Notes: a model not told the origin generated them from the sequence alone. Numbered from the stretch's first letter, positions 1-24,000 are shown. The stretch is DNA of 24,000 nt from an uncultured archaeon (GCA_964558645.1 CAZLEV010000002.1:41193-65192); one strand, 5' to 3'. Made by a program: numbers and translations.

Positions 1-927
1 GATGAAGGGATAAAGAAGGCACTGCGTGACAGAGGAGCCAAGAAAGCAGCATACGTTGCCTACGAGGAACCCGACAGACGAAAGGAGGACAGACCAAACA
101 CGGCACTCTGGCCTCAGACAATTGCCAGACATGGCCTATTACGTCCACCCAATGCAGAGATCCTTGCGCCATTCACGCACAACGCGTTATACATTGCGCG
201 ATCTGTGGCGGTCTATGACTCAATGCTCCAGAGATATCGTGATGAGTCGCGTCCGTTCAAATCAACCGAGATTAGTACAAGTCCAAAATTGTGTAGGAGC
301 CTCATCACGCTTGCTGGGGCTAGAAGAGGAGACACAGTCCTTGACCCATTCTGCGGAACAGGAACTCTTCTTATGGAAGCAGCACTCTTGGGGATGCGAT
401 GTGTGGGCATCGACATTGATGCTAATGCGGTTCAGGGAACAGCTGCGAATCTCAAGTGGCTAGGCAAAGAGCTTGAAGAATACCTTGATTTCCGAGTCCT
501 CCATGGCGATGCGCGAGATAGCGAACATCTGGTTGCGGAGAAGGTAGATGCGATTGCATTTGAGCCCTACCTTGGTCCACTTTACGAGAATCAACCAGCA
601 GAACCAGAGGCCAGAGCCTTGACCAAAGACCTGACAGAGTTATATCGAGACTCGCTGAAGTCGCTAGCGGCCATCCTGAGACACGATGGAAAGGTTGCGA
701 TGACTATCCCCGTGATCAATTGCAGGACCGGAAAAGTAAGAATCGATCTTGATCGCATGTTGTCAGAAACGCCCTTCCGGATACACAAGATGCTACCGGG
801 CGGAGTATTCAAGAGTGATCCCAACAGAAACACACCTTACATGATAAGACCAAACAGAGACCTGCTTCCCGAACGAAAGTGGGGACAAGTAGTTCAGCGG
901 CAGGTGATTACACTAAGTATCTCTTAG
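1..927 (+). CDS. SAM-dependent RNA methyltransferase, UPF0020/Trm11-like (N2-guanine tRNA MTase family), 5'-truncated by the window edge
   Basis: Frame +1 is open from nt 1, so the track ORF at 205 starts on an internal GTG. Motif I is 'VLDPFCGTGTLLMEAALLG', followed by 'CVGIDID'. The upstream 'SPKLCRSLITLAG' resembles the Trm11/Trm-G10 pre-motif-I arm. Motif IV is the atypical 'FEPY' (559-570) rather than D/NPPY. Confidence 0.7.
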   Translation, partial: DEGIKKALRDRGAKKAAYVAYEEPDRRKEDRPNTALWPQTIARHGLLRPPNAEILAPFTHNALYIARSVAVYDSMLQRYRDESRPFKSTEISTSPKLCRSLITLAGARRGDTVLDPFCGTGTLLMEAALLGMRCVGIDIDANAVQGTAANLKWLGKELEEYLDFRVLHGDARDSEHLVAEKVDAIAFEPYLGPLYENQPAEPEARALTKDLTELYRDSLKSLAAILRHDGKVAMTIPVINCRTGKVRIDLDRMLSETPFRIHKMLPGGVFKSDPNRNTPYMIRPNRDLLPERKWGQVVQRQVITLSIS

Positions 928-1811
928 AAAAGGTATCGTACCACATCGTCGAGGATCGCATATGTCTGCAGTCTCTGGATATCACGCTTGACGTACGGCA
1001 TCAGATGCTCAAATACCATTTGCCGATAGTTGTTCACACCGGCCTGTTCCTGTACCTCTTCGGCAGTTATCCGTAGGAGCTCCTCCAGAGCAGTCCGCAA
1101 GCTTCGGTAAGGGATGTCACCTCTGGAGACGTCTATCTCTAGTACCTCGATTCCACAGTCATCGATAGGTACGGATTCAAGAAACATATATCTCTCAGTG
1201 AGAGGTTCGATTCTGTTGCGGATGCTGCTGGCGATTTCCCGCTTGAGCTTTTTCTTCATGTCTATCTTCATCATCTGACGAAAGAGATGATTATAGACTT
1301 CAAGGCAGTCCATCGATTTGCCTGCGAGCAGACACTCGTCAGTCTCTTCATACTGAGCGACAAGTTCGTCCAAAAAGAATCCGAATTCCTTGAATGCAGT
1401 TGGATCACCATGCCACTCCTTCAATACATTACTGATTCCTCGCTCTTGAGGGATGAAGTTGTTCACGAACTCATTCAACGCGTAGTCAAGCATGAATCGC
1501 ATATGACCGATTCGTGCGGCCTTTGAGATGACCATGACGAAGAGAAGATGCTCATTCGCCTCCCAGACATATCTGCTGTTCTCGGTGTCTATTGTCTTGA
1601 GAGTCTCATTAGAAGCCTTGTCGATGAAGGTGTGAGTCGCAGACAAGAAGGGAGCAATAAGATCCATATCAATGTCAATGCCATCATACGCTCGGGCCAC
1701 GAGATTTCGGCCAGTTCCTCTCTCAATCAGCCACATTCCTAGAATTGAGCGACGTTCGGCCATCTTGAATCGCACTCCTCGTCCGTGCTTCCCCCGTAGC
1801 AAAATAAGCAT
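924..1811 (-). CDS. Hypothetical protein with an N-terminal longin/roadblock-like alpha-beta domain and a helical C-terminal half
   Basis: 295-aa ORF. A more likely start is the ATG at 1763 (MAERRSILGMWLIE), preceded by GAGGAGTG. The N-terminal roughly 100 aa show the hydrophobic pattern 'ILGMWLIERGTGRNLVARAY...HLLFVMVISK...LDYALNEFVNNF', typical of longin/sigma-adaptin/roadblock folds. The rest is predicted helical. The functional assignment is by eye only. Confidence 0.6.
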   Translation of the reverse strand: MLILLRGKHGRGVRFKMAERRSILGMWLIERGTGRNLVARAYDGIDIDMDLIAPFLSATHTFIDKASNETLKTIDTENSRYVWEANEHLLFVMVISKAARIGHMRFMLDYALNEFVNNFIPQERGISNVLKEWHGDPTAFKEFGFFLDELVAQYEETDECLLAGKSMDCLEVYNHLFRQMMKIDMKKKLKREIASSIRNRIEPLTERYMFLESVPIDDCGIEVLEIDVSRGDIPYRSLRTALEELLRITAEEVQEQAGVNNYRQMVFEHLMPYVKRDIQRLQTYAILDDVVRYLF

Positions 1812-8080: not shown

Positions 8081-8132
8081 GGTTATTGTGAGCTATAGTG
8101 GACACTAGTACAAGACCAGCGGAGGCAGTCAG

Positions 8133-9695
8133 TTGAAGGTAGGCAGCTCCCACAGAAGATGCAGAGTTTGTGAGAGGAACACAGCGACTCACATGTGCGA
8201 AGACTGCGGCGAGAACTTCTGTCTGGATTGTCTTGAGAGTAAGACCACAGAGTACTATGTCTGCTCGGAGTGCCATCACACTCTAGGAACTCCAGAAGCC
8301 GGGGAGCCCTTCGAGAAGTGTCCCGAATGCGAGTGTGAAGAACTGAGCACTGGAAAAAGGATAGAGGAAATCTGTCCCCGATGTCACTCCTCTAGGATAG
8401 TCTCTATAGATGACAAGAGAAGGAACCTTGGAAAGAAGCTACGAGAGTCCATCATGACACTCCAGTACGGTCATCTCAAGCTGAGGGAGTTCAACAGCAA
8501 GCTCACTGCTTCGAAGAGACTACTGGTTTCCTTGAGGATGGCCAATTTCCTGCATTATCACTGGATTGAAGACAACATCGAGGGAATCCAAGATGAAGCA
8601 TTGGCCGTGAAGAAGAGAGTTGTCAACCAAGCAGATATGGTCGGGCGTCAGATGGCTGCCGAGACCAAGGGAATAATCGACCCCAGCACCTGGACTCCCG
8701 ATCAGTTTCCATTTATCGAGGGTGTTGCAAACCGAATTGGAGAACTGGGAGAGCATTTCAAGTCTGGTGTTGATGATGCGTTGGATGACTGCGTTGTTCG
8801 ACTAAACGAAACGACAACCCAGCTTGAGGGACTTGACTACTATCGGAAGGAATTTGCGGGGTTCTACGAACATGCCGAACTGTCTGTCAATGAGCTTCCT
8901 GTCTGCGCATTGCCCGAGATTCGAGTTACAGGTAGCGATTTCCTAAAGCATGACAAGGCAACGGGAACACTCTATATAACAAACAAGAGAATTGTGTTCA
9001 TAGCCGAGGTGGGAACATTTCGAAAGAAGATGGAAGTCCTCTTCGATTTTCCCCTTGTCTATCTCAACTCCATGGAGGAGGACGGGAGAATCAGAAAGCG
9101 TCTGGTTCTCAAGATGAAACAGGGAGACCTAAAGATATCCTGTGACGAACAGACCGAAGAGGTCCTTCCAGACTATCTCGAGATAGCAAAGAAGTTCGAC
9201 AGATACATGCAGACAGATATGCAGCGGGTAAGGCGCATTGAACAGTCGAGTTTCAACATCAGTGATGTGCGTCTCAAGATAGAGGAACTTGTGTATTCAC
9301 TCTTGTCTTCAAGCACTCGGAAACGTGCAGAAGATCTCACTATGAACGAGAGATGCCAAGACAGGTATCACTATCAGAAGCGTCCTGCAGCAGGCTATGG
9401 AACCATGAATGGGTATGGGTCTCAGCATTTCACCGACCACCTTGAAGACGTTCTCTCTCGTGCATCTCTTGGACATGGAGAGCGACGCGGAGATATTGAT
9501 CCGCAGGTACAACGGCTCAAAAGAGATGCCAGAGACTTGCAGCAAGCAGTTTCACGAACCGTAGACCTATTCAGGAATCGAAGGCTTGTCTCTGAAGATT
9601 TTGTGAGAAGATACAGGAGCCTAATGCTCGACTCCTACAGAACGCGGAAAGAAATAGATGAGGTCATGAAACAGAGATCTGATTCTCTCTGGTGA
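8133..9695 (+). CDS. ESCRT-locus protein: N-terminal multi-zinc-ribbon (B-box-like) + helical region + GRAM/GLUE-like PH-type domain
   Basis: 520-aa ORF with a TTG start 7 nt after GGAGG (8121-8125). Residues 10-84 carry six CxxC pairs (C10/13, C22/25, C30/33, C44/47, C63/66, C81/84). Residues about 255-340 read 'TGTLYITNKRIVFIAEVGTFRKKMEVLFDFPLVYLNSMEEDGRIRKRLVLKMKQGDLKISC', which matches the G-T-L-x-h-T-x-x-R-h-h-F signature of GRAM/GLUE/bPH domains. The stop is 1 nt from the stop of the convergent ESCRT-III gene. Confidence 0.8.
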   Translation: MKVGSSHRRCRVCERNTATHMCEDCGENFCLDCLESKTTEYYVCSECHHTLGTPEAGEPFEKCPECECEELSTGKRIEEICPRCHSSRIVSIDDKRRNLGKKLRESIMTLQYGHLKLREFNSKLTASKRLLVSLRMANFLHYHWIEDNIEGIQDEALAVKKRVVNQADMVGRQMAAETKGIIDPSTWTPDQFPFIEGVANRIGELGEHFKSGVDDALDDCVVRLNETTTQLEGLDYYRKEFAGFYEHAELSVNELPVCALPEIRVTGSDFLKHDKATGTLYITNKRIVFIAEVGTFRKKMEVLFDFPLVYLNSMEEDGRIRKRLVLKMKQGDLKISCDEQTEEVLPDYLEIAKKFDRYMQTDMQRVRRIEQSSFNISDVRLKIEELVYSLLSSSTRKRAEDLTMNERCQDRYHYQKRPAAGYGTMNGYGSQHFTDHLEDVLSRASLGHGERRGDIDPQVQRLKRDARDLQQAVSRTVDLFRNRRLVSEDFVRRYRSLMLDSYRTRKEIDEVMKQRSDSLW

Positions 9696-9696
9696 G

Positions 9697-10311
9697 CTAG
9701 ACACCTAGCTCTTGCTCCAGTGATTTGATCTCAGCCTCTAATTCTTCGGATTCTGTCATAGGGGCTTTCTTCGCCTGAGATGTAGCTGCGCCAGCTTCTG
9801 CATCTATCTCAGCCATGGCCGCCGCGAGCTCTTCTGAAGTGACTTCACCAATCTCAGTCGTGTCGAGGGCTTCTGTCGATATACTGGACTCTATCTCAAA
9901 CTGCTCCAACCGACGACCAATCTCATCCACATTTTCCACGACCTTCAGTGTGTCCGTGGTATCACCTAGAAGCCCCAGAATGTCAGCGACTTTCTCTAGT
10001 GCAACATTAGCCTTGGCCGTGGTCTGCGCTCGAGTGATATAGGCCAATATCTTTAGGATTTGAAGACGGGACTTGTCTACAGAGAGAGCAAACCGTCGGA
10101 ACCGGACCATCTCAGTAGCGTAGGTCTTGTACGCATCTGCCCTGCCCTCCTTCCTGGCACGCACAGCTCGAGCCCTGGTATCACGAGCTTCTTTCTCGAG
10201 TTTGTTGCGTTCTCGCGCCAGCTGTTTTGACAAAACTCGAAGCTGGCTTGAAACTTCACCGACATCTGGGCGTTTTTTGCCCCATCTGAAAGCCTTTCGA
10301 ATTGGACCCAA
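9697..10311 (-). CDS. ESCRT-III (Snf7/CHMP family) protein, probably of the Vps2/24/46-like group
   Basis: 204-aa ORF with a basic N-terminal helical hairpin ('LSKQLARERNKLEKEARDTRARAVRARKEGRADAYKTYATEMVRFRR'), an acidic C-terminal half and a terminal amphipathic helix 'EELEAEIKSLEQEL'. The TTG start at 10311 is preceded by GAGGGAG with a 6-nt spacer. There is no in-frame ATG until codon 67. Confidence 0.85.
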   Translation of the reverse strand: MGPIRKAFRWGKKRPDVGEVSSQLRVLSKQLARERNKLEKEARDTRARAVRARKEGRADAYKTYATEMVRFRRFALSVDKSRLQILKILAYITRAQTTAKANVALEKVADILGLLGDTTDTLKVVENVDEIGRRLEQFEIESSISTEALDTTEIGEVTSEELAAAMAEIDAEAGAATSQAKKAPMTESEELEAEIKSLEQELGV

Positions 10312-10471
10312 GAGTTACTCCCTCGTCAATCTTATTGCCGTACATAGATGCAAGGAATGAAGACCGTTTAAACCTTCGTAGAACGAGTGACCAGTTCGAT
10401 ATATGAGGCAGACGGTAACTGGGAAATACTGAAGTTCTTAACGGAAGACATCTAATCGCGAGTGAGGTTCA

Positions 10472-11680
10472 ATGGTGGATAGAATAGATCAGGGTCTCAA
10501 GGCACTACTTGACAAGGCAATAGACCTGGACAAGAGAGGTATGGGAAAAGAGGCTTGCCAGTATTATCTGAAGGCTAGCAAAGTGCTGATCAAACTGTCA
10601 AACTCGGCGGCATTGCCCTCTATCAGGAAACACTATCTCAAAAGAGCGCAAGAGTGTGTTGACAGGGTCCGGTATCTCTCCGGCATCAAGAAGAAGTCAG
10701 GACCTGTCCATGGACTCGAAGTACCACCCGAACCCCTTGAGAGAGAAGAGCCAGTTCCTGCTCAAGCCTCTACCGAAGAGAAGGAGATTGACGAGGATAC
10801 CGTCAGGCTGCGAGATATGATAGAAGATACAATAGTTTCGGAGCGCCCAGATGTTAGAATGTCAGAGGTCGCAGATCTCGAGGATGCAAAACAGGCAATT
10901 GATGACGCGATTCTTGCGCCCATGAAACATCCCGAGCTGTTCCGTGGAAAGGCGAGACAGCCTTGGAGAGGTATCTTGCTTTATGGTCCTGCGGGATGTG
11001 GTAAAACACTCATAGCAAAGGCCGTGGCCTCAGAGATTGACGCGACATTCTTCAATGTGTCAGCCGCCAATATAGTAAGCAAATGGCTTGGCGAATCAGA
11101 ACGATTGGTAATGACTCTCTTCGAACTGGCACGTAAGAATCCACCCGCAATAATATTCATCGACGAGCTCGATTCTATAGGAGTTTCCAGATCAGGCGAG
11201 GATGTTGGAGGTGAAAGGCGTCTGAAGACGCAGCTGCTGACCGAGTTGCAGGGGCTCGGTAGTCGCGAGGATGAGAGAATCACGGTAATCGGAGCCACAA
11301 ACCTTCCTTGGGAGCTCGACTTTGCTCTGCGGTCCAGATTTGAGAAAAGAATCCATGTGCCGTTGCCGGGTCGCGATGCTAGAAAGAAGATCTTTGCCAC
11401 TCATATGGAGGAGATAGAGATGGCCCCCAGCGTAGACTTCGCGGAGTTGGCCGATCTGACAGAGGGATACAGCGGACGGGACATCAGTGTTGTGTGTCGA
11501 GAGGCGGCAATGGAACCGATTCGAGAACTCCAAACAAGTGGACGGTTGGATGAGGATGCGGAAATATTCGACCTGAGACCTGTTGAACGTTATGACTTCT
11601 TATCAGCTATAGAAAACATCAGACCTGCAACATCGCCCGAAGATGTCAAGCGGTATATAGACTGGGCGGAGGGCTCATAG
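10472..11680 (+). CDS. vps4: Vps4-like AAA+ ATPase (MIT domain + AAA cassette; CdvC homologue)
   Basis: N-terminal MIT-like three-helix region ('ALLDKAIDLDKRG..EACQYYLKASKVLIKL..HYLKRAQECVDRVRYL'), Walker A 'GPAGCGKT', Walker B 'IIFIDELDS', second region of homology 'ALRSRFEKRIHVPLP', and the Vps4-type C-terminus 'SPEDVKRYIDWAEG'. A GTGAGGT sequence lies upstream of the ATG. Confidence 0.93.
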   Translation: MVDRIDQGLKALLDKAIDLDKRGMGKEACQYYLKASKVLIKLSNSAALPSIRKHYLKRAQECVDRVRYLSGIKKKSGPVHGLEVPPEPLEREEPVPAQASTEEKEIDEDTVRLRDMIEDTIVSERPDVRMSEVADLEDAKQAIDDAILAPMKHPELFRGKARQPWRGILLYGPAGCGKTLIAKAVASEIDATFFNVSAANIVSKWLGESERLVMTLFELARKNPPAIIFIDELDSIGVSRSGEDVGGERRLKTQLLTELQGLGSREDERITVIGATNLPWELDFALRSRFEKRIHVPLPGRDARKKIFATHMEEIEMAPSVDFAELADLTEGYSGRDISVVCREAAMEPIRELQTSGRLDEDAEIFDLRPVERYDFLSAIENIRPATSPEDVKRYIDWAEGS

Positions 11681-11683
11681 CTG

Positions 11684-12388
11684 ATGAATGTTCGTGAGAG
11701 GTCAAAAGAGAAGAAGAAGACCGTCGAGAAGAAGCGTGAGTCGGAAGAAGAGTCAGAAGAGCAAATTGTGATCAAGACTCCCACGGATCAACAAATACCC
11801 GAAGTCAGTGTCAGAGAGGCTGTGACCGTCACAGAGTCCGAAGAACAGGCTGCTGTACCGCAGGAGCCTGCAAGTGAAGTCGAGGATATCTTGCCGCAGT
11901 GGGGGCATGCTGAAGACTCGGAGTGGATGTACCAAGTTCCAGATTACGAGGAGGGTAGACAACTCTGGGCAAGAGATTGGACAGACTTCATACTCACATG
12001 GATGGAGAACCAGAAACTTCATGTCATATCGATCACGACTTTCATAACCGAGAGTCCATTTAGCGAGATTGTTGGCAAGGCGGATGCGTTTGAGATTCTT
12101 GGAGATACCCTTGTAGAAAAGAACATAGCACAATGGATTGGAGATGAGAAGCGTCAGCTTCGAGTCTACTGGCGGCCTTTGGAGGACTGGGCGGATCATG
12201 TCTACCGATGGGCACTCGAAACAGGCTTGATGCGTCTCGATGTGAAGTCGATCGTCATCCAACAGGGTAGAGAAGGTTTCGGACGCCTCCCGGAGGGCGA
12301 CCTTCGCCGTATCATGGAACTGCTTGTAGAACGCGGCTATGCAAGATGGGTGGACAAGGAGCGCGGCGCTGTTGTGCTGGTTGTATGA
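11684..12388 (+). CDS. Vps25-like ESCRT-II subunit (tandem winged helix) with an acidic/lysine-rich N-terminal extension
   Basis: The ATG is 3 nt after the vps4 stop, consistent with an operon. Residues about 85-234 follow the Vps25 pattern ('RQLWARDWTDFILTWMENQKLHV', 'LRVYWRPLEDWADHVYRWALETG', 'LRRIMELLVERGYARWVDKE'). The first 75 or so residues are low-complexity K/E/S-rich. Confidence 0.75.
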   Translation: MNVRERSKEKKKTVEKKRESEEESEEQIVIKTPTDQQIPEVSVREAVTVTESEEQAAVPQEPASEVEDILPQWGHAEDSEWMYQVPDYEEGRQLWARDWTDFILTWMENQKLHVISITTFITESPFSEIVGKADAFEILGDTLVEKNIAQWIGDEKRQLRVYWRPLEDWADHVYRWALETGLMRLDVKSIVIQQGREGFGRLPEGDLRRIMELLVERGYARWVDKERGAVVLVV

Positions 12389-12392
12389 CACG

Positions 12393-13151
12393 CTAGCGAT
12401 TATGCTTGCCGTTCGAGTCGACATCTGTCCTTGATCTTAGGCCCGGGAAGTAGTATCTTCCCCCCGTGCTAAATCGGATGTCGGCCACAGCCATGCCAGC
12501 CTCCACAAGACTGGAGAGGACAGTTCGAGCGTGATCTTCAGACCATTTCAACTTCATGATTACCTCCTCAATAGAGACAAATCCTTTGGACGCTGCGAGA
12601 TTAATCACATCAGCCTGGTCTTGCCGTAGTTCCAAAGGCCTCAATTCGACAACTTTGACGCCTCCGCTCAGTGTTCGAATCCCTGGGATGAGACCGTGCT
12701 CTGCAACTCGATTCACAGCCTCGATCACATCGTTATAGCTGACGGATTTGAGTTCGGGGGTTCGTCGTACAACGTCGACAATCAGCTCTGCCAGCCCCAT
12801 AAGACCCTTTGATGCGTTCTCAGTTGCAACGTCAAGCACCGCCAGACCAATGTAGTCATAGTATTCATCCGATGTCATCCCCTGCATGGAAGCAGCAGAC
12901 TGTTGTGGTAGAATTCGAAGCAGTCCTGCGGCTTCGGGGAAGCGGGAAACAATGCCCTCACTCTCAAAGAATCCGGTTACATCTCTACCCATCCGACGCA
13001 TTCTATCAAGATTCTCTCGGATGTCCATGACAAGAGCCTCTGATTCGCGCTCGTAGGAACGAACATCCACTGCACCCATGTCGAACATCTTCTTGAACTG
13101 ATCCAGCGTGGCTATCGACGCGTAGAGCTCAGATTCAACACGATCATCCAT
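12393..13151 (-). CDS. Vps22/Snf8-like EAP30-domain ESCRT-II subunit
   Basis: It is collinear by eye with Vps22/SNF8: 'DEYYDYIGLAVLDV' (compare DFYYELGVQIIEV), 'VSYNDVIEAVNRV', 'VVELRPLELRQDQADVINLAA..GFVSIEEVIMKLKWSEDHARTVLSSLVEAGMAVAD....YYFPGL'. The track ORF extends to 13277, but that extra N-terminus is Cys/Leu-rich and looks like noise. I chose the ATG at 13151 (MDDRVESELY). Confidence 0.8.
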   Translation of the reverse strand: MDDRVESELYASIATLDQFKKMFDMGAVDVRSYERESEALVMDIRENLDRMRRMGRDVTGFFESEGIVSRFPEAAGLLRILPQQSAASMQGMTSDEYYDYIGLAVLDVATENASKGLMGLAELIVDVVRRTPELKSVSYNDVIEAVNRVAEHGLIPGIRTLSGGVKVVELRPLELRQDQADVINLAASKGFVSIEEVIMKLKWSEDHARTVLSSLVEAGMAVADIRFSTGGRYYFPGLRSRTDVDSNGKHNR

Positions 13152-13549: not shown

Positions 13550-13616
13550 CGCTCCGACTATTGGTGTGTTCATCCCAAGTCCCAAGTTGGAGATTGTGTA
13601 CAGCAAGTGCAGCATT

Positions 13617-14312
13617 ATGGCGAAAGGTACCTCGAGTCCGCATATTGGAACGCTAAAAGAGCGCTCACTCCATGCTGGATTGAAGGAATGGTACAAAGAA
13701 CCGGGCGATTGTTTTGAGGCTGAGGTAGATGGATACGTAATTGATATCGCCCGAGAGAATCTGTTGGTAGAGATACAGACCACAGGTTTCTCAGTAATCA
13801 AAGCGAAACTCCGGGATCTTCTCACCAGACACAATGTGCGTCTCGTCTATCCAGTGATATCAGAGAAGTATATAGTGAAAGAAACGCCTGATGGATCAGA
13901 AGTGATCGAGAAACGTCTCTCACCCAAGAAGGAGAGTTTCCACGACGTCTTCTATGAGATGGTTTACCTTCCGAGACTCATCGAACATCCTCGTTTCAGT
14001 ATCGATGTCTTGCAGGTCAGGGCAGAGGAGACTCGCCGACGGGACGGACATGGTAGTTGGAGACGCAGAGGCTGGAGTATCGTTGATACTGAACTAGTGG
14101 AAGTAGTAGATAGGCAGTTGTTTGAGAGCCCATCAGATCTACTGAGGCTTATCCCACAAGACCTGACGAATCCGTTCACCAATGCTGAACTGGCAGAGCG
14201 AATCAAGCGGCCATCTGCTTTGGCAAGGAAGATGACGTATACTCTCAGGAAGATAGGAATCGTGAAGTTAGTGGGTAGACGCGGAAGAGCCCATCTCCAT
14301 TCCATCACCTAG
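13617..14312 (+). CDS. PD-(D/E)xK-fold nuclease-like protein (CoiA-like 'EIQ' motif) with a C-terminal winged-helix domain
   Basis: 'EAEVDGYVIDIARENLLVEIQTTGFSVIKAK' gives a D...E-x-Q/K arrangement like CoiA-type restriction-endonuclease folds. The C-terminal 'FTNAELAERIKRPSALARKMTYTLRKIGIVKLVG' is wHTH-like. I prefer the ATG at 13617 over the upstream GTG at 13566. Confidence 0.55.
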   Translation: MAKGTSSPHIGTLKERSLHAGLKEWYKEPGDCFEAEVDGYVIDIARENLLVEIQTTGFSVIKAKLRDLLTRHNVRLVYPVISEKYIVKETPDGSEVIEKRLSPKKESFHDVFYEMVYLPRLIEHPRFSIDVLQVRAEETRRRDGHGSWRRRGWSIVDTELVEVVDRQLFESPSDLLRLIPQDLTNPFTNAELAERIKRPSALARKMTYTLRKIGIVKLVGRRGRAHLHSIT

Positions 14313-16188: not shown

Positions 16189-17535
16189 CTAAGACGGCTT
16201 TCTGAACACCAACACCCACTCGCCGTTCATTCTCTCTGGACGGGGAATCCTGATGAAATGTCTGATGAGGCCAGAGAAGAAGCGCTTCTCCAGCTCGAAC
16301 CCCGCACGTCTAACCGCTATTTCGGAGAGGATATCTTGAGAGGGAATCTCATGACCACGGATGACATTGTTGCCGATTACGACGCAATAGTGCGCATCAG
16401 GCCTCAAGACTCGACGCATCTCAAAGAATTGCTTCTCCATATCTTTGAAGAACTTGTATACGATATAGGATCGTCGGGGGTCAACTTCAAAGATAGCCTC
16501 GAGCAGTCGGTCAAGCGAATCCAGACCAGAAACACGGAGATTCTTGTAGTCCTCTTTGTAGACCGTTTCGGTCCCTATGTACTTCCGTTTCATCTGGGAG
16601 AGAGGACCGTCTGGAACCATGTCTAACCAGTACATCTCCAGCTGGTGGGTTCGCGGATAGTCTACCGCATTGATATAGGGTGGCGAGGTGACTGCAAGGT
16701 CGATAGACCGGCTTTCCAAGCCCGTTTCCGTTGCTGTGCTTCGTGGCAGAGTCGGTGATGGGAGGGCAGCCTCACTGCAGAGTGTCCAGAATTCGCTCAT
16801 TGTATCTATCTGTGCCTCAAGGGCTTCAGAGAACTCTTGCAGCGCTTCTCCAGGACTCATGTTGCGTATTTTCTTCTTGCGAATAACGGTTCGCGTACAA
16901 TGAGGATCGGCATTTGACACGCCACGAACGATTGAGGAGAATACTACTCGAAAGAAGTCGAACAGCCTGCCCTGCTCGTGTGTTTCAATCCCTCCAGCCC
17001 ATAGGTCACGATCTCTGATACACTCTAAGATAAGGCCCAGTTCCCGTAACACGTGAGACTGAAACCATGAATCACGATAGTGGAAATCCGGTATCGGTGG
17101 CCGATGTCCCGAAGCAAATCGCGCGTTCAATTCCTGGCTCAGGCGATCGGTTGCCAAGAAGAGCGTATCCGGGTTCAGAGCTGTTGTCTTGACGCGCGTG
17201 ACGAGACGGGCAATCGGATCAATATCTATACCAATCCCTCTCCTCTGGCCAAGCATAGCCTCCAATACAACCGTTCCGCTGCCACACATGGGATCTAGTA
17301 CTGAATCCATCCGATGGGAATACTTCCTAATCAAATATCGAGGTAACTCGGGGAAGAACTTGGCAGGAAACTTATGGATGCCATGAGTCAGATACGACTG
17401 GTCATTACTGATCACCAGAATGCGTGAACCATCAGGAATCTCGGTCTTCGGATCGATATCACCTTCAATCTCCAATAGACCATCATGTTCACTCGATGAG
17501 TCCTCTCCACAGCACGAGTCCGACGATATATCCAA
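16189..17535 (-). CDS. SAM-dependent DNA methyltransferase (N4-cytosine/N6-adenine type, SPPY catalytic motif)
   Basis: The motif X/I region is 'HKFPAKFFPELPRYLIRKYS...VLDPMCGSGTVVLEA...GIDIDP' near residue 80. Catalytic motif IV 'TSPPYINAVDY' is near residue 283, followed by 'MRRVLRPDAHYCVVIGNN'. The ORF is bounded upstream by a stop codon. The first usable start is the TTG at 17535, and there is no early ATG. Confidence 0.75.
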   Translation of the reverse strand: MDISSDSCCGEDSSSEHDGLLEIEGDIDPKTEIPDGSRILVISNDQSYLTHGIHKFPAKFFPELPRYLIRKYSHRMDSVLDPMCGSGTVVLEAMLGQRRGIGIDIDPIARLVTRVKTTALNPDTLFLATDRLSQELNARFASGHRPPIPDFHYRDSWFQSHVLRELGLILECIRDRDLWAGGIETHEQGRLFDFFRVVFSSIVRGVSNADPHCTRTVIRKKKIRNMSPGEALQEFSEALEAQIDTMSEFWTLCSEAALPSPTLPRSTATETGLESRSIDLAVTSPPYINAVDYPRTHQLEMYWLDMVPDGPLSQMKRKYIGTETVYKEDYKNLRVSGLDSLDRLLEAIFEVDPRRSYIVYKFFKDMEKQFFEMRRVLRPDAHYCVVIGNNVIRGHEIPSQDILSEIAVRRAGFELEKRFFSGLIRHFIRIPRPERMNGEWVLVFRKPS

Positions 17536-22632: not shown

Positions 22633-24000
22633 CTAAAAGAACTGGTCAAGTGTGGTGAATCCCATGAGTTCTTCGAAGTCTATACCAACAGAATCCAGCA
22701 CCTGACCGAATACCGATCTCAACGTATCAATGTACTTGTCCTTGTCAATGAAATAGGTTCCCTCCTCGGCCAATTCAACGGGAAGGACGCCCTCGGGACC
22801 CTTAGTCTTGATGTATTCAACAATAGTTCCCGACGGCACCTCATAGCCTGCATCACGAAGCTGGATTGCAGCGCGGACATGCTGTGGTGTCGTCTTACCA
22901 TATTGTGCTATCTCCTTGGTCATCTGAACCCGGAAGGCCAGGTCTTCTGGGCTATACGGTTCAGTCTTCCCTTCAAGCCTATCAAGAACAACATTGACAA
23001 TCTCACGAATCTCGTCTTTTGCTGCTTTGAATCCCTCTCTGTTGTCAACACGGCTCAAAACATCGAGCATCTCTCTGAAGGCGTCTTGCACAAAGTCGGG
23101 AGTGTTACGTTTCTTTCCACTGAGACCCTTGACCTCAACATAACCCGAGTCGTAGACCCCGATGTAGTTCTTCTTTCGATCGGAGAGTGCAACATACTTG
23201 TAGGTCTTCTCTACCTCGAGATCTATACCCAGTTCATCTTGAGACCATTTGACAAGCTCAGCTTGTTGTTCAGAGGTCGGATTGTCCAGAAACACGGAGT
23301 CGGTGTCGCCATAGAGGACCCGAACGCCCATGGACTCTGCTTTCTCTTTCGTCCTGATAATTGCGTGTCGTCCATAAGCTGTGACGCTCTCGGCAGCGGG
23401 CATACAGAACAGCTCGAAATGCTGAGCTCCTGTGACCCCGTAGCTGTTGTGCACTACAATTCCATTGGTTGACACAAAGAGTCCATTTCCTGTTTCAAGG
23501 TCGTAAGTCTGCTCAGGGTCAGCTCTCCTCTCTATCGAGCGGATTCTCACGGTACGAGTGCCGTTGAAGTCAATCAATCCTCGCCCCGTTCGCTGGTACT
23601 TCAGCCCCTTCGTTTCGACAACACGATAGATAGATTCATCGCGATGCACGGATGCATGTCTTCCCAATGCTCCGAGGAGATACAGAATATCATGAGCCAG
23701 TTGCTTGCTAGAAGTGGTATATCGCCTATTACCACGGACATTGATGTTCCCATCACCCTTGAAGAACGATTCAAGGACAACTCGCGCTCTTCTTTCATCA
23801 AGCAGTCGAAGGGGAATGGATTTGCTCTTTGAGTAACTGCCACAAAGGTGCTCCATGATTGCTGCGAGTGTCTTCGAGTGAATGACATGGTCTTTCTTCG
23901 AATAGACGGCAAAGGGTAGGTCCATCCGTTGCAAGAGTGACCCAATCTCATTGAAGTAGACTGGATTGACTTCCTGATACTGTGAAATGGATACCCGATT
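22633..24000 (-). CDS. polB: Family-B DNA polymerase, C-terminal part, interrupted by an intein (the gene continues beyond the window)
   Basis: The frame is open through nt 24000, and the track start at 23934 is an internal TTG. Extein sequence: 'SYGVTGAQHFELFCMPAAESVTAYGR' (the tail of the region III/motif B KxxxNSxYG...SVT.GR signature) and 'YGDTDSVFL' (motif C), followed by the thumb domain. Intein sequence lies upstream. Confidence 0.92.
   Translation of the reverse strand, partial: NRVSISQYQEVNPVYFNEIGSLLQRMDLPFAVYSKKDHVIHSKTLAAIMEHLCGSYSKSKSIPLRLLDERRARVVLESFFKGDGNINVRGNRRYTTSSKQLAHDILYLLGALGRHASVHRDESIYRVVETKGLKYQRTGRGLIDFNGTRTVRIRSIERRADPEQTYDLETGNGLFVSTNGIVVHNSYGVTGAQHFELFCMPAAESVTAYGRHAIIRTKEKAESMGVRVLYGDTDSVFLDNPTSEQQAELVKWSQDELGIDLEVEKTYKYVALSDRKKNYIGVYDSGYVEVKGLSGKKRNTPDFVQDAFREMLDVLSRVDNREGFKAAKDEIREIVNVVLDRLEGKTEPYSPEDLAFRVQMTKEIAQYGKTTPQHVRAAIQLRDAGYEVPSGTIVEYIKTKGPEGVLPVELAEEGTYFIDKDKYIDTLRSVFGQVLDSVGIDFEELMGFTTLDQFF
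23446..24000 (-). mobile_element. Intein (C-terminal part) with a LAGLIDADG homing-endonuclease domain, inserted in motif B of PolB
   Basis: It ends 'TYDLETGNGLFVSTNGIVVHN|S': blocks F and G, the terminal His-Asn, and a +1 Ser (23443-23445). The LAGLIDADG-type motifs 'VLESFFKGDGNI' and 'ILYLLGALG' are present. The N-terminal splicing domain lies beyond nt 24000. Confidence 0.85.

Follow-up and report, generated by a model that had tools for sequence, protein, structure and literature searches.

A zinc-module, PH-domain and steadiness-box protein encoded beside ESCRT-III in an uncultured archaeon, a predicted ESCRT-I-like adaptor

[quoted passage not shown] This question is raised by a stretch of 24,000 nucleotides from an uncultured archaeon (GCA_964558645.1 CAZLEV010000002.1:41193-65192), which will be called here, at its full length, the window. 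The sequence-only reading of this DNA had proposed that the product of the gene at 8133..9695 (+), a protein of 520 amino acids, could be the missing upstream module for the recognition of membrane or cargo. We have analyzed this protein by homologue and profile searches, structural modelling and comparison of gene neighbourhoods. The protein is assigned by sequence comparison to the Asgard family Znr_CC_PH_SB, of which it is a Thorarchaeota member, and it is predicted to be, in our judgement probably, a single-chain, ESCRT-I-like upstream adaptor.

The gene and its family

The 8133..9695 feature is an open reading frame (ORF) of 520 codons plus stop, and it is a real gene of a conserved family. 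A first homologue search found 168 proteins, and among the 120 listed nearly all were full length, with about 50-57% identity. The organisms named among the listed homologues were mostly Thorarchaeota, and the proteins were annotated as 'hypothetical protein' and occasionally as 'B-box zinc finger protein'. The start codon of the gene is TTG, and a Shine-Dalgarno-like GGAGG can be read directly from the sequence on its 5' side (8119..8123, +). An identical public protein (P0001, 500 amino acids) and many homologues of 498-505 amino acids have been annotated from an internal ATG (M21; window 8133-8195), a start that drops the first family-invariant CxxC pair (C10, C13). The TTG at 8133 is a better start than M21, since C10 and C13 never vary within the family, the GGAGG lies upstream, and the homologues of 520-525 amino acids give alignments that span 100% of the 520-residue protein.

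When 1.84 billion cluster representatives were searched by profile, 123 relatives of 480-1171 amino acids were recovered. A second homologue search, made with the wide profile, gave once more Thor proteins only, and a profile built from the non-Thor members was needed to extend the family; the named members outside Thorarchaeota belong to Lokiarchaeota/Promethearchaeota, Jordarchaeia and other Asgard bins. The sequence-only reading could not say whether such a family had been described, and in fact it has been: Makarova et al. (2024, mBio, PMC10936438) defined the Asgard-specific family Znr_CC_PH_SB (cog.011556), which joins zinc ribbons and a coiled coil to a PH domain and the steadiness box. 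By computational prediction, these authors described it as 'a likely ESCRT-I component' whose PH domain is 'expected to be membrane associated', and they found it absent from eukaryotes and 'likely to be ancestral in Asgardarchaeota' (PMC10936438). The family and its predicted role are thus already known from the sequence analysis published in 2024, and they are not a discovery of this work.

The exemplar entry in Table S2 of that study (PMC10936438) is a Lokiarchaeum GC14_75 protein of 650 amino acids (As_004-p_01543), encoded between L35Ae and MetE, which are followed by a Vps20-family ESCRT-III gene. We have found a metagenome contig of the Loki's Castle type (L133) with ORFs of 388, about 97, 650, 340 and 218 amino acids, whose lengths and spacings equal those of the Table S2 locus with a constant offset of 1261 nucleotides. 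Judging from this locus geometry, the 650-residue ORF of L133 is apparently the cog.011556 exemplar. The window protein matches it in BLASTP at 3e-34, with 26% identity over 395 amino acids, and the Thor profile matches it at 7.3e-38; here the C-terminal hairpin aligns in a second segment, co-linear with the first. All the features of cog.011556, i.e., three N-terminal zinc modules, a helical region, a PH domain and, through homology at the level of the family, a steadiness box, are present in the window protein. The exemplar and the Thor protein have the same domain order, and both are encoded in an ESCRT neighbourhood. The Thor proteins differ from the Loki-type members in their size (520 versus 640-750 amino acids), in a much shorter linker and in a more divergent steadiness box. 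Another Asgard protein, of 435 amino acids and compared by description only, also carries a triple zinc module and a PH domain, but its annotation includes neither a coiled coil nor a steadiness box.

Domain architecture of the protein

The whole 520-residue protein gave no Pfam match at an E-value (E) of 0.01, and the domains were assigned instead from fragments of the protein and from scans of individual family members, together with a full-length AlphaFold2 model (35-sequence alignment; mean predicted local distance difference test, pLDDT, 80.2; predicted template modelling score 0.56).

The C-terminus forms a helical hairpin (residues 457-519; 9501..9689, +), absent from the description given by the sequence-only reading, with helices at 457-481 and 487-519 that were modelled at pLDDT 92-96. 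A profile made from the hairpins of 42 members reached yeast Vps23 (Stp22) in the PDB at 6.9e-7 (2f66_A; also 2p22_A and 2caz_A), human TSG101 at 1.7e-4 and, weakly, Vps37B. When the hairpins were compared one by one with Pfam, 28 of the 42 matched Vps23_core (best 3.2e-7), four matched CdvA (best 3.4e-4) and two matched SHOCT. The profile restricted to Thor hairpins maps onto the same C-terminal hairpin of the non-Thor members. Profile comparison shows, at the level of the family, homology between this hairpin and the steadiness box of Vps23/TSG101. The steadiness box is the helical hairpin that assembles the headpiece of ESCRT-I, and it is a hallmark of that complex. Two other identities were considered for the hairpin. 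SHOCT, suggested by its 'G-x-I-S-x-x-[ED]-Y' pattern, was rejected (2/42 against 28/42 for Vps23_core), and CdvA, with its four members, was retained merely as a distant relative.

Residues 255-353 (8895..9191, +) form a PH-like domain of the GLUE/GRAM/bPH branch, modelled as a seven-strand sandwich (256-336) with a capping helix (339-353). A GRAM/GLUE pattern had been proposed for residues 255-340 from the sequence, and its reading of 'TGTLYITNKRIVFIAE' was right at the level of this branch: TGTLYITNKRIVFIAE, LFDFPLVYLNSMEEDG and LVLKMKQGDLKISC are located at residues 277-337, inside the sandwich, and G278 is invariant in a 48-sequence alignment of the family. In a Foldseek search of the PDB, the full model recovered only PH-containing proteins, including Lam6, the MTMR2 PH-GRAM domain, EAP45 GLUE and yeast Vps36 GLUE. 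Both the full-length model and a model of the domain only (residues 246-396, 40-sequence alignment, pLDDT 86.8) reach a probability of 1.00 in their matches to PH, GLUE and GRAM domains of known structure. The domain-only model found human EAP45 GLUE first (2hth_B, E 3.2e-4, template modelling (TM) scores 0.53/0.60), then MTMR2 GRAM (4.6e-4) and yeast Vps36 GLUE (2cay_B, 5.5e-4), and then BBS5 and the GRK2 PH domain. DH-PH exchange factors, which head the list for the full model with 320-360 aligned columns, were discarded, since these matches have a root-mean-square deviation of about 20 Å and a TM score of about 0.2 and correspond to helices plus PH, with no DH domain.

The sequence profiles point to the same branch. 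For the window protein, Pfam gave sub-threshold matches to GRAM (0.008), bPH_3 (0.009) and Vps36_ESCRT-II (0.054-0.11); across 40 members the counts were 31 for bPH_3 (best 1.7e-7), 14 for Vps36_ESCRT-II (5.9e-6) and 14 for GRAM (7.8e-5). Searched against the PDB, the PH profile of the family had yeast Vps36 as its top match (E 0.02), with kGiLllTnkrliFlke aligned to RGRIFLTSQRIIYIDD, and the strand pair G-x-L-x-x-T-x-x-R-[LI]-x-[FW] is common to this PH-like fold and to Vps36/EAP45 GLUE. Within the PH clan, the bacterial and archaeal bPH_3 domains and the eukaryotic GRAM domains share a branch with the family domain, but they occur alone or in other combinations, without an ESCRT link. The basic positions K275, K285/R286, R297-K299 and R319-R323 of the domain are conserved.

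The PH-like domain is followed by conserved helices (FDRYxQTDxQRVR..., RLKIE; residues 355-391; 9195..9305, +), the model showing two further helices within 363-391. A low-confidence linker of variable length (residues 395-455; 9315..9497, +), with pLDDT below 50 and gaps in the alignment, then leads to the hairpin; it is much longer in the Loki-type members than in Thor. The Thor linker contains a short, semi-conserved helix, F[RT]..LE..L.R, at residues 431-445 (window 9423-9467). This helix was considered as an MIT-interacting motif, for which it is a poor fit.

At the N-terminus, cysteines are found at positions 10/13, 22/25, 30/33, 44/47 (followed by H48 and H49), 63/66 and 81/84 (followed by H85), giving the spacing C-x2-C-x8-C-x2-C-x4-C-x2-C-x10-C-x2-C-H-H and then C-x2-C-x14-C-x2-C, exactly as the six CxxC pairs at residues 10-84 had been read before. 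All 12 cysteines are invariant and their spacing is nearly fixed in the 48-sequence alignment, in which the sequences from outside the query's clade are 17-29% identical to it, a conservation that, judged on the sequences, lies far beyond chance. The spacing of the first six cysteines agrees with what we take to be the B-box consensus, C-x2-C-x7-10-C-x2-C-x4-5-C-x2-C. Scans of the first 95 residues of 25 members against Pfam matched zf-B_box in 23 (best 1.2e-6), DZR in 22, an ANCHR-like B-box and Zn_ribbon_8 in 18 each, FYVE in 12 and RING in 11; the window protein itself scored 17.1 bits against zf-B_box (PF00643), below the cut-off of 24.1. A profile search of the PDB with the zinc region matched the RNF4 RING at 2.1e-7 and the TRIM2 B-box at 2.7e-5, and also the KAP1 B-box, although scores between cysteine-rich profiles have to be taken with caution. 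In the model, residues 10-91 form a zinc-rich region with beta strands, including a beta hairpin at 71-80. From these similarities, the first eight cysteines are best read as a two-zinc module of the B-box/RING/FYVE type (residues 10-48; 8160..8276, +), and the four that follow as a zinc ribbon, which would hold a third zinc (residues 63-85; 8319..8387, +). This agrees with the earlier idea of a B-box/cross-brace-like module followed by a ribbon, the cross-brace topology itself being only putative. All three zinc modules were named 'Zn ribbons' by Makarova et al. (2024; PMC10936438).

After the zinc modules and before the PH-like domain, the model places three long helices (92-136, 143-177 and 189-240, within residues 92-247; 8406..8873, +), with a pLDDT of mostly 83-96 and a single dip to 73. 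They comprise about 156 helical residues, close to the 170 or so anticipated from the sequence. The block has conserved loop motifs (LSLRMANFLHYxW and QFPFIEG) and a family-wide invariant R135 in the 48-sequence alignment, and the search of residues 92-247 against Pfam gave no match. On the basis of the model, we read this three-helix region as an intramolecular stalk.

Linkage to ESCRT genes across Asgard archaea

The 8133..9695 gene is convergent with an ESCRT-III gene (9697..10311, -), and the stop codons of the two are one base apart. The product of the latter matches Pfam Snf7 and, in the PDB, best CHMP2A and CHMP1B, and it is of the Vps2/24/46 (CHMP2A/1B-like) type, called here IIIA. Further on, the window encodes Vps4 (MIT, AAA and Vps4_C domains by Pfam; 10472..11680, +), a Vps25-like ESCRT-II subunit (PF05871, E 3e-12; 11684..12388, +) and a Vps22-like (EAP30) ESCRT-II subunit (PF04157, E 9.5e-14; 12393..13151, -, the ORF being listed to 13277). 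An EAP30 protein with a GLUE domain was not found by Pfam at any position of the window, in line with the sequence-only reading that Vps22 and Vps25 are present and Vps36 is not.

The ESCRT-III pairing is conserved well beyond Thorarchaeota, so that the linkage on which the earlier proposal depended does exist. Within Thor, we have examined 74 genome loci of the Thorarchaeota type, most of which carry Thorarchaeota in their title. In 71 of the 74 the convergent ESCRT-III gene is adjacent, and Vps4, Vps25 and Vps22 are found in 63, 61 and 60, respectively, the gaps being mostly contig ends. One of these loci (L014) keeps the gene by ESCRT-III with no match to Vps4 or Vps25 within 10 kb, and its Vps22 lies about 10.6 kb away. 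The lineages outside Thor are more informative. Among the Loki-type metagenome loci, 43 have 2 kb or more of downstream sequence. An ESCRT-III gene lies downstream in 41 of them, always convergent; it is directly adjacent in 18, and in another 21 the distance is compatible with one intervening gene, which is MetE where checked. No Vps4, Vps22, Vps25 or other ESCRT-III paralogue was found within 10 kb in these 43 loci. The adjacency is also seen in one locus of Jordarchaeia (L160), in one sourced as 'Asgardarchaeia' (L161), with a divergent ESCRT-III of 225 amino acids, and in L077. The adjacent ESCRT-III proteins have 200-225 amino acids and show no domain other than Snf7.

The ESCRT-III paralogue next to the gene is not the same in all lineages. 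Outside Thor the neighbour is of the Vps20/32/60-like type, called here IIIB (match to 9fn1_U at 7.5e-84), as for instance at 11207-11857 of locus L078. In L077 (9524-10747) and L160 (8555-12977), IIIB is next to the gene and IIIA lies beyond it; in L160 a DUF87 protein of 956 amino acids (9490-12360, -) is encoded between the two ESCRT-III genes. None of the 74 Thor loci has IIIB within 10 kb of the gene. The ancestral order was likely adaptor, IIIB and IIIA, and the Thor lineage would have lost the IIIB gene at this site. The genes of the Thor proteins lie inside the main ESCRT cluster, next to IIIA, unlike those of the other Znr_CC_PH_SB proteins, which lie next to IIIB. The conserved convergent pairing with ESCRT-III and the switch between IIIA and IIIB in Thor are new additions of this work.

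The ESCRT cluster of the window is flanked by TldD/PmbA, ArgRS and AspRS. The Vps25 orthologues (window 11684-11960, +) carry an N-terminal extension of about 90 amino acids, which opens with a segment rich in K, R and E (KERxKEK...), passes into acidic low-complexity sequence and closes with a conserved WG..EWMY.IP motif ahead of the ESCRT-II domain. A steadiness box in this extension was considered and rejected, as it is K/E-rich low-complexity sequence and not a hairpin. An ORF of 248 amino acids between Vps22 and AspRS (13566-14312, +) is found in two of the 74 Thor loci (L001 and L056), which indicates a lineage-specific insertion. It was discarded as an ESCRT subunit: apart from this rarity, nothing in it resembles Vps22 or Vps25, Pfam and the PDB yielded no match, and its C-terminus is only weakly winged-helix-like.

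Farther from the cluster, the protein of 295 amino acids encoded at 924-1811 (-) has a weak longin match (Fuz_longin_1, E 6e-4) and is syntenic 5' of TFB in 38 Thor loci; it may be an Asgard longin/roadblock-type protein. Methyltransferase domains of the N6_N4_Mtase/UPF0020 kind are encoded in the flanks at 205-927 (+) and 16189-17535 (-), the second being syntenic in 24 Thor loci, and a fragment of a family-B DNA polymerase with a LAGLIDADG intein lies at 22633-23934 (-; DNA_pol_B 1.2e-27, LAGLIDADG_3 1e-6, Intein_splicing).

A predicted adaptor and its alternatives

As an ESCRT-I-like adaptor, the protein would bind the membrane or a membrane-associated cargo through its basic PH domain, perhaps with a contribution of the zinc module; the zinc modules would mediate protein or cargo recognition, and the helical stalk would set the spacing between them and the PH domain. 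The steadiness box would dock on an ESCRT-I-type hairpin, either the N-terminus of the Vps22-like protein, encoded about 3.5 kb downstream, or an ESCRT-I-like headpiece, and this docking would bring Vps22/Vps25, and then ESCRT-III and Vps4, to the site. Such an adaptor would replace UEV-Vps23 in cargo and membrane recognition, and it would supply the membrane binding of the GLUE domain of eukaryotic Vps36. The replacement role fits because ubiquitin has been reported absent from Thorarchaeota (Hatano et al., 2022) and UEV-Vps23 from Loki- and Thorarchaeia (Lu et al.). A strict complementarity with UEV-Vps23 is not established, the family being present in Jordarchaeia and other Asgard lineages as well. 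The likeness to Vps23/TSG101 lies in the C-terminal steadiness box, in the elongated helices upstream of it and in the presumed upstream recognition role. Vps23/TSG101 has, however, a UEV domain where the Thor protein has zinc modules and a PH domain (Pfam finds no UEV/E2 in it), and the helices of the Thor protein form an intramolecular three-helix bundle that, unlike those of Vps23/TSG101, has the PH domain and a disordered linker between itself and the hairpin.

A candidate docking partner has been located in the Vps22-like protein. A GTG far upstream is given as the start of its ORF, but the real start is better placed at M43 (13151), because the alignments of most orthologues begin only near residue 43. 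From there, a helical hairpin with the conserved pattern SELYASIATLDQLKK..G.VD.RSY..ES.AL is encoded (12987..13151, -), supported by conservation and profile searches. The profile of this hairpin has the N-terminus of yeast Vps28 as its top PDB family (2f6m_B, 2f66_B, 2p22_B and 2caz_B, E 0.14-0.26), and in hhalign it aligns with the steadiness-box profile of the family at 71.6% probability (E 3.5e-5). Yeast Vps23 and Vps28 are packed together in the ESCRT-I core through the hairpin of the former and the N-terminal hairpin of the latter (PDB 2F66, 2P22), and because of this packing a pairing of the steadiness box with the Vps22 hairpin is a reasonable inference. By this analogy, the N-terminal hairpin of the Vps22-like protein is a plausible docking partner. 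Makarova et al. (2024) also give, in their Table S3 (PMC10936438), an HHpred probability of 99% between residues 1-70 of a Thor Vps22-like protein and PF03997 (Vps28).

Several observations weigh against this assignment. The hairpin of the window protein itself does not match Pfam Vps23_core, and the profile made only from Thor hairpins reaches Vps23 just at E 0.11-0.66; because neither is significant, the steadiness-box assignment of the window protein is one of transitive homology. The match of the Vps22 hairpin to Vps28 is weak (best E 0.14), and hhalign gives 7% probability, i.e., no support, when the Thor-only hairpin profile is set against the Vps22 hairpin. The advantage of GLUE over other PH domains is small (E 3e-4 versus about 1e-3, with TM scores of about 0.5). 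As for the gene context, the two convergent genes do not form an operon, and the whole 20 kb is syntenic in Thor, including ArgRS, TldD, TFB and AspRS, so that Thor synteny alone is weak evidence, since housekeeping genes are equally syntenic. No ESCRT gene lies within 7 kb of one distant member (L162). In the lineages other than Thor the neighbour is ESCRT-III and not ESCRT-II, and a direct link to ESCRT-III fits this at least as well. Finally, a literature search found no experimental work on the Znr_CC_PH_SB family, and the study of Asgard ESCRT interactions by Hatano et al. (2022) did not cover this protein.

The synteny of the Thor housekeeping genes would also suit a B-box/zinc-ribbon protein with a regulatory or nucleic-acid-binding function, unrelated to ESCRT and a neighbour of its genes by chance, and so would the NCBI names of the relatives, which are just 'B-box zinc finger protein' or 'hypothetical protein', and the lack of any Pfam family above threshold on the whole protein. 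This explanation is very improbable in our view, since the ESCRT-III adjacency persists where the other neighbours are wholly different and identity to the window protein is about 20%, the hairpin of the family matches the Vps23 steadiness box significantly, and the PH domain falls in the GLUE/GRAM branch. A more specific possibility, although an unlikely one, is a direct recruiter comparable to crenarchaeal CdvA, whose gene lies beside cdvB. With its PH domain and zinc modules on the membrane, the protein would nucleate or position ESCRT-III and bypass ESCRT-II. The conserved neighbour in Loki-type genomes, Jordarchaeia, 'Asgardarchaeia' and L077 is indeed ESCRT-III (IIIB), with Vps4, Vps22 and Vps25 not nearby, and the Thor locus L014 keeps its own ESCRT-III neighbour with no match to Vps4 or Vps25 within 10 kb. 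CdvA also combines a membrane-binding domain with a hairpin that has been reported as homologous to the steadiness box, and Pfam CdvA was matched by four of the 42 hairpins (best 3.4e-4). Yet Vps23_core prevails over CdvA by 28 hairpins to four, and the PRC barrel of CdvA is not seen by Pfam or in the model, where zinc modules and a PH domain are found instead. Moreover, CdvA has a C-terminal peptide that binds the winged helix of CdvB; no evident tail of this kind was seen in the Thor protein and no winged-helix domain in the adjacent Asgard ESCRT-III proteins, which have 200-225 amino acids and are Snf7 only, and the neighbouring paralogue varies between IIIA in Thor and IIIB elsewhere.

There remains the explanation nearest to the sequence-only reading, namely that the protein is a detached GLUE module of ESCRT-II which acts in trans with Vps22/Vps25 as the missing half of Vps36, binding lipid, cargo and upstream factors, and which is not part of ESCRT-I. 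Its GLUE/GRAM-type PH domain agrees with this: the best structural matches are the EAP45 and Vps36 GLUE domains, Pfam Vps36_ESCRT-II is found in 14 of 40 members (best 5.9e-6), and yeast Vps36 is the top PDB profile match. In yeast Vps36, too, a PH domain occurs together with zinc fingers, and the locus has the Vps22-like and Vps25 subunits but no Vps36. However, Vps36 has the tandem winged helices of the EAP30 core, of which neither Pfam nor the model gives any sign in the Thor protein, where helices, a linker and a hairpin are present instead. The NZF fingers of yeast Vps36 are inserted in its PH domain, whereas the zinc ligands of the Thor protein, at residues 10-84, are of the B-box/ribbon type and precede the stalk. 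The bPH_3 model outnumbers the GLUE model (31 against 14 of 40 members), in the Loki-type loci neither Vps22 nor Vps25 comes within 10 kb of the gene, and the sole recognisable docking element is the Vps23-type steadiness box, an ESCRT-I feature. A detached GLUE module thus seems improbable to us, and the description of the protein as a missing Vps36 half, which was right as to the type of PH domain but not as to the remaining architecture, should be replaced by that of an ESCRT-I-like adaptor built of zinc modules, PH domain and steadiness box.

A wider and rather speculative extension, to which we give little credence, is that the family is the archaeal forerunner of both the steadiness box of Vps23 and the GLUE domain with zinc fingers of Vps36. 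It would have been a ubiquitin-independent, single-chain 'ESCRT-0/I' adaptor, whose ancient primary partner was the Vps20/32/60-like ESCRT-IIIB, in a route that predates the relay from ESCRT-I to ESCRT-II, and in Thor it would have been secondarily rewired into the Vps22/Vps25/Vps4 cluster.

The value of the present analysis lies in the confirmation of, and the statistical support for, a Vps23-type hairpin and a GLUE/GRAM-type PH domain in this family, in the B-box-like reading of its zinc modules, in the deeply conserved pairing with ESCRT-III and its paralogue switch in Thor, and in the docking hypothesis. The Znr_CC_PH_SB protein, which joins zinc fingers and a PH domain of the lipid-binding type to an ESCRT-I docking hairpin, is an obvious candidate for the factor by which the ESCRT machinery of Thor and Loki archaea would find membranes or cargo, and a GLUE-like PH domain in Asgard outside Vps36 is relevant to the way in which ESCRT-I and ESCRT-II came together during eukaryogenesis.

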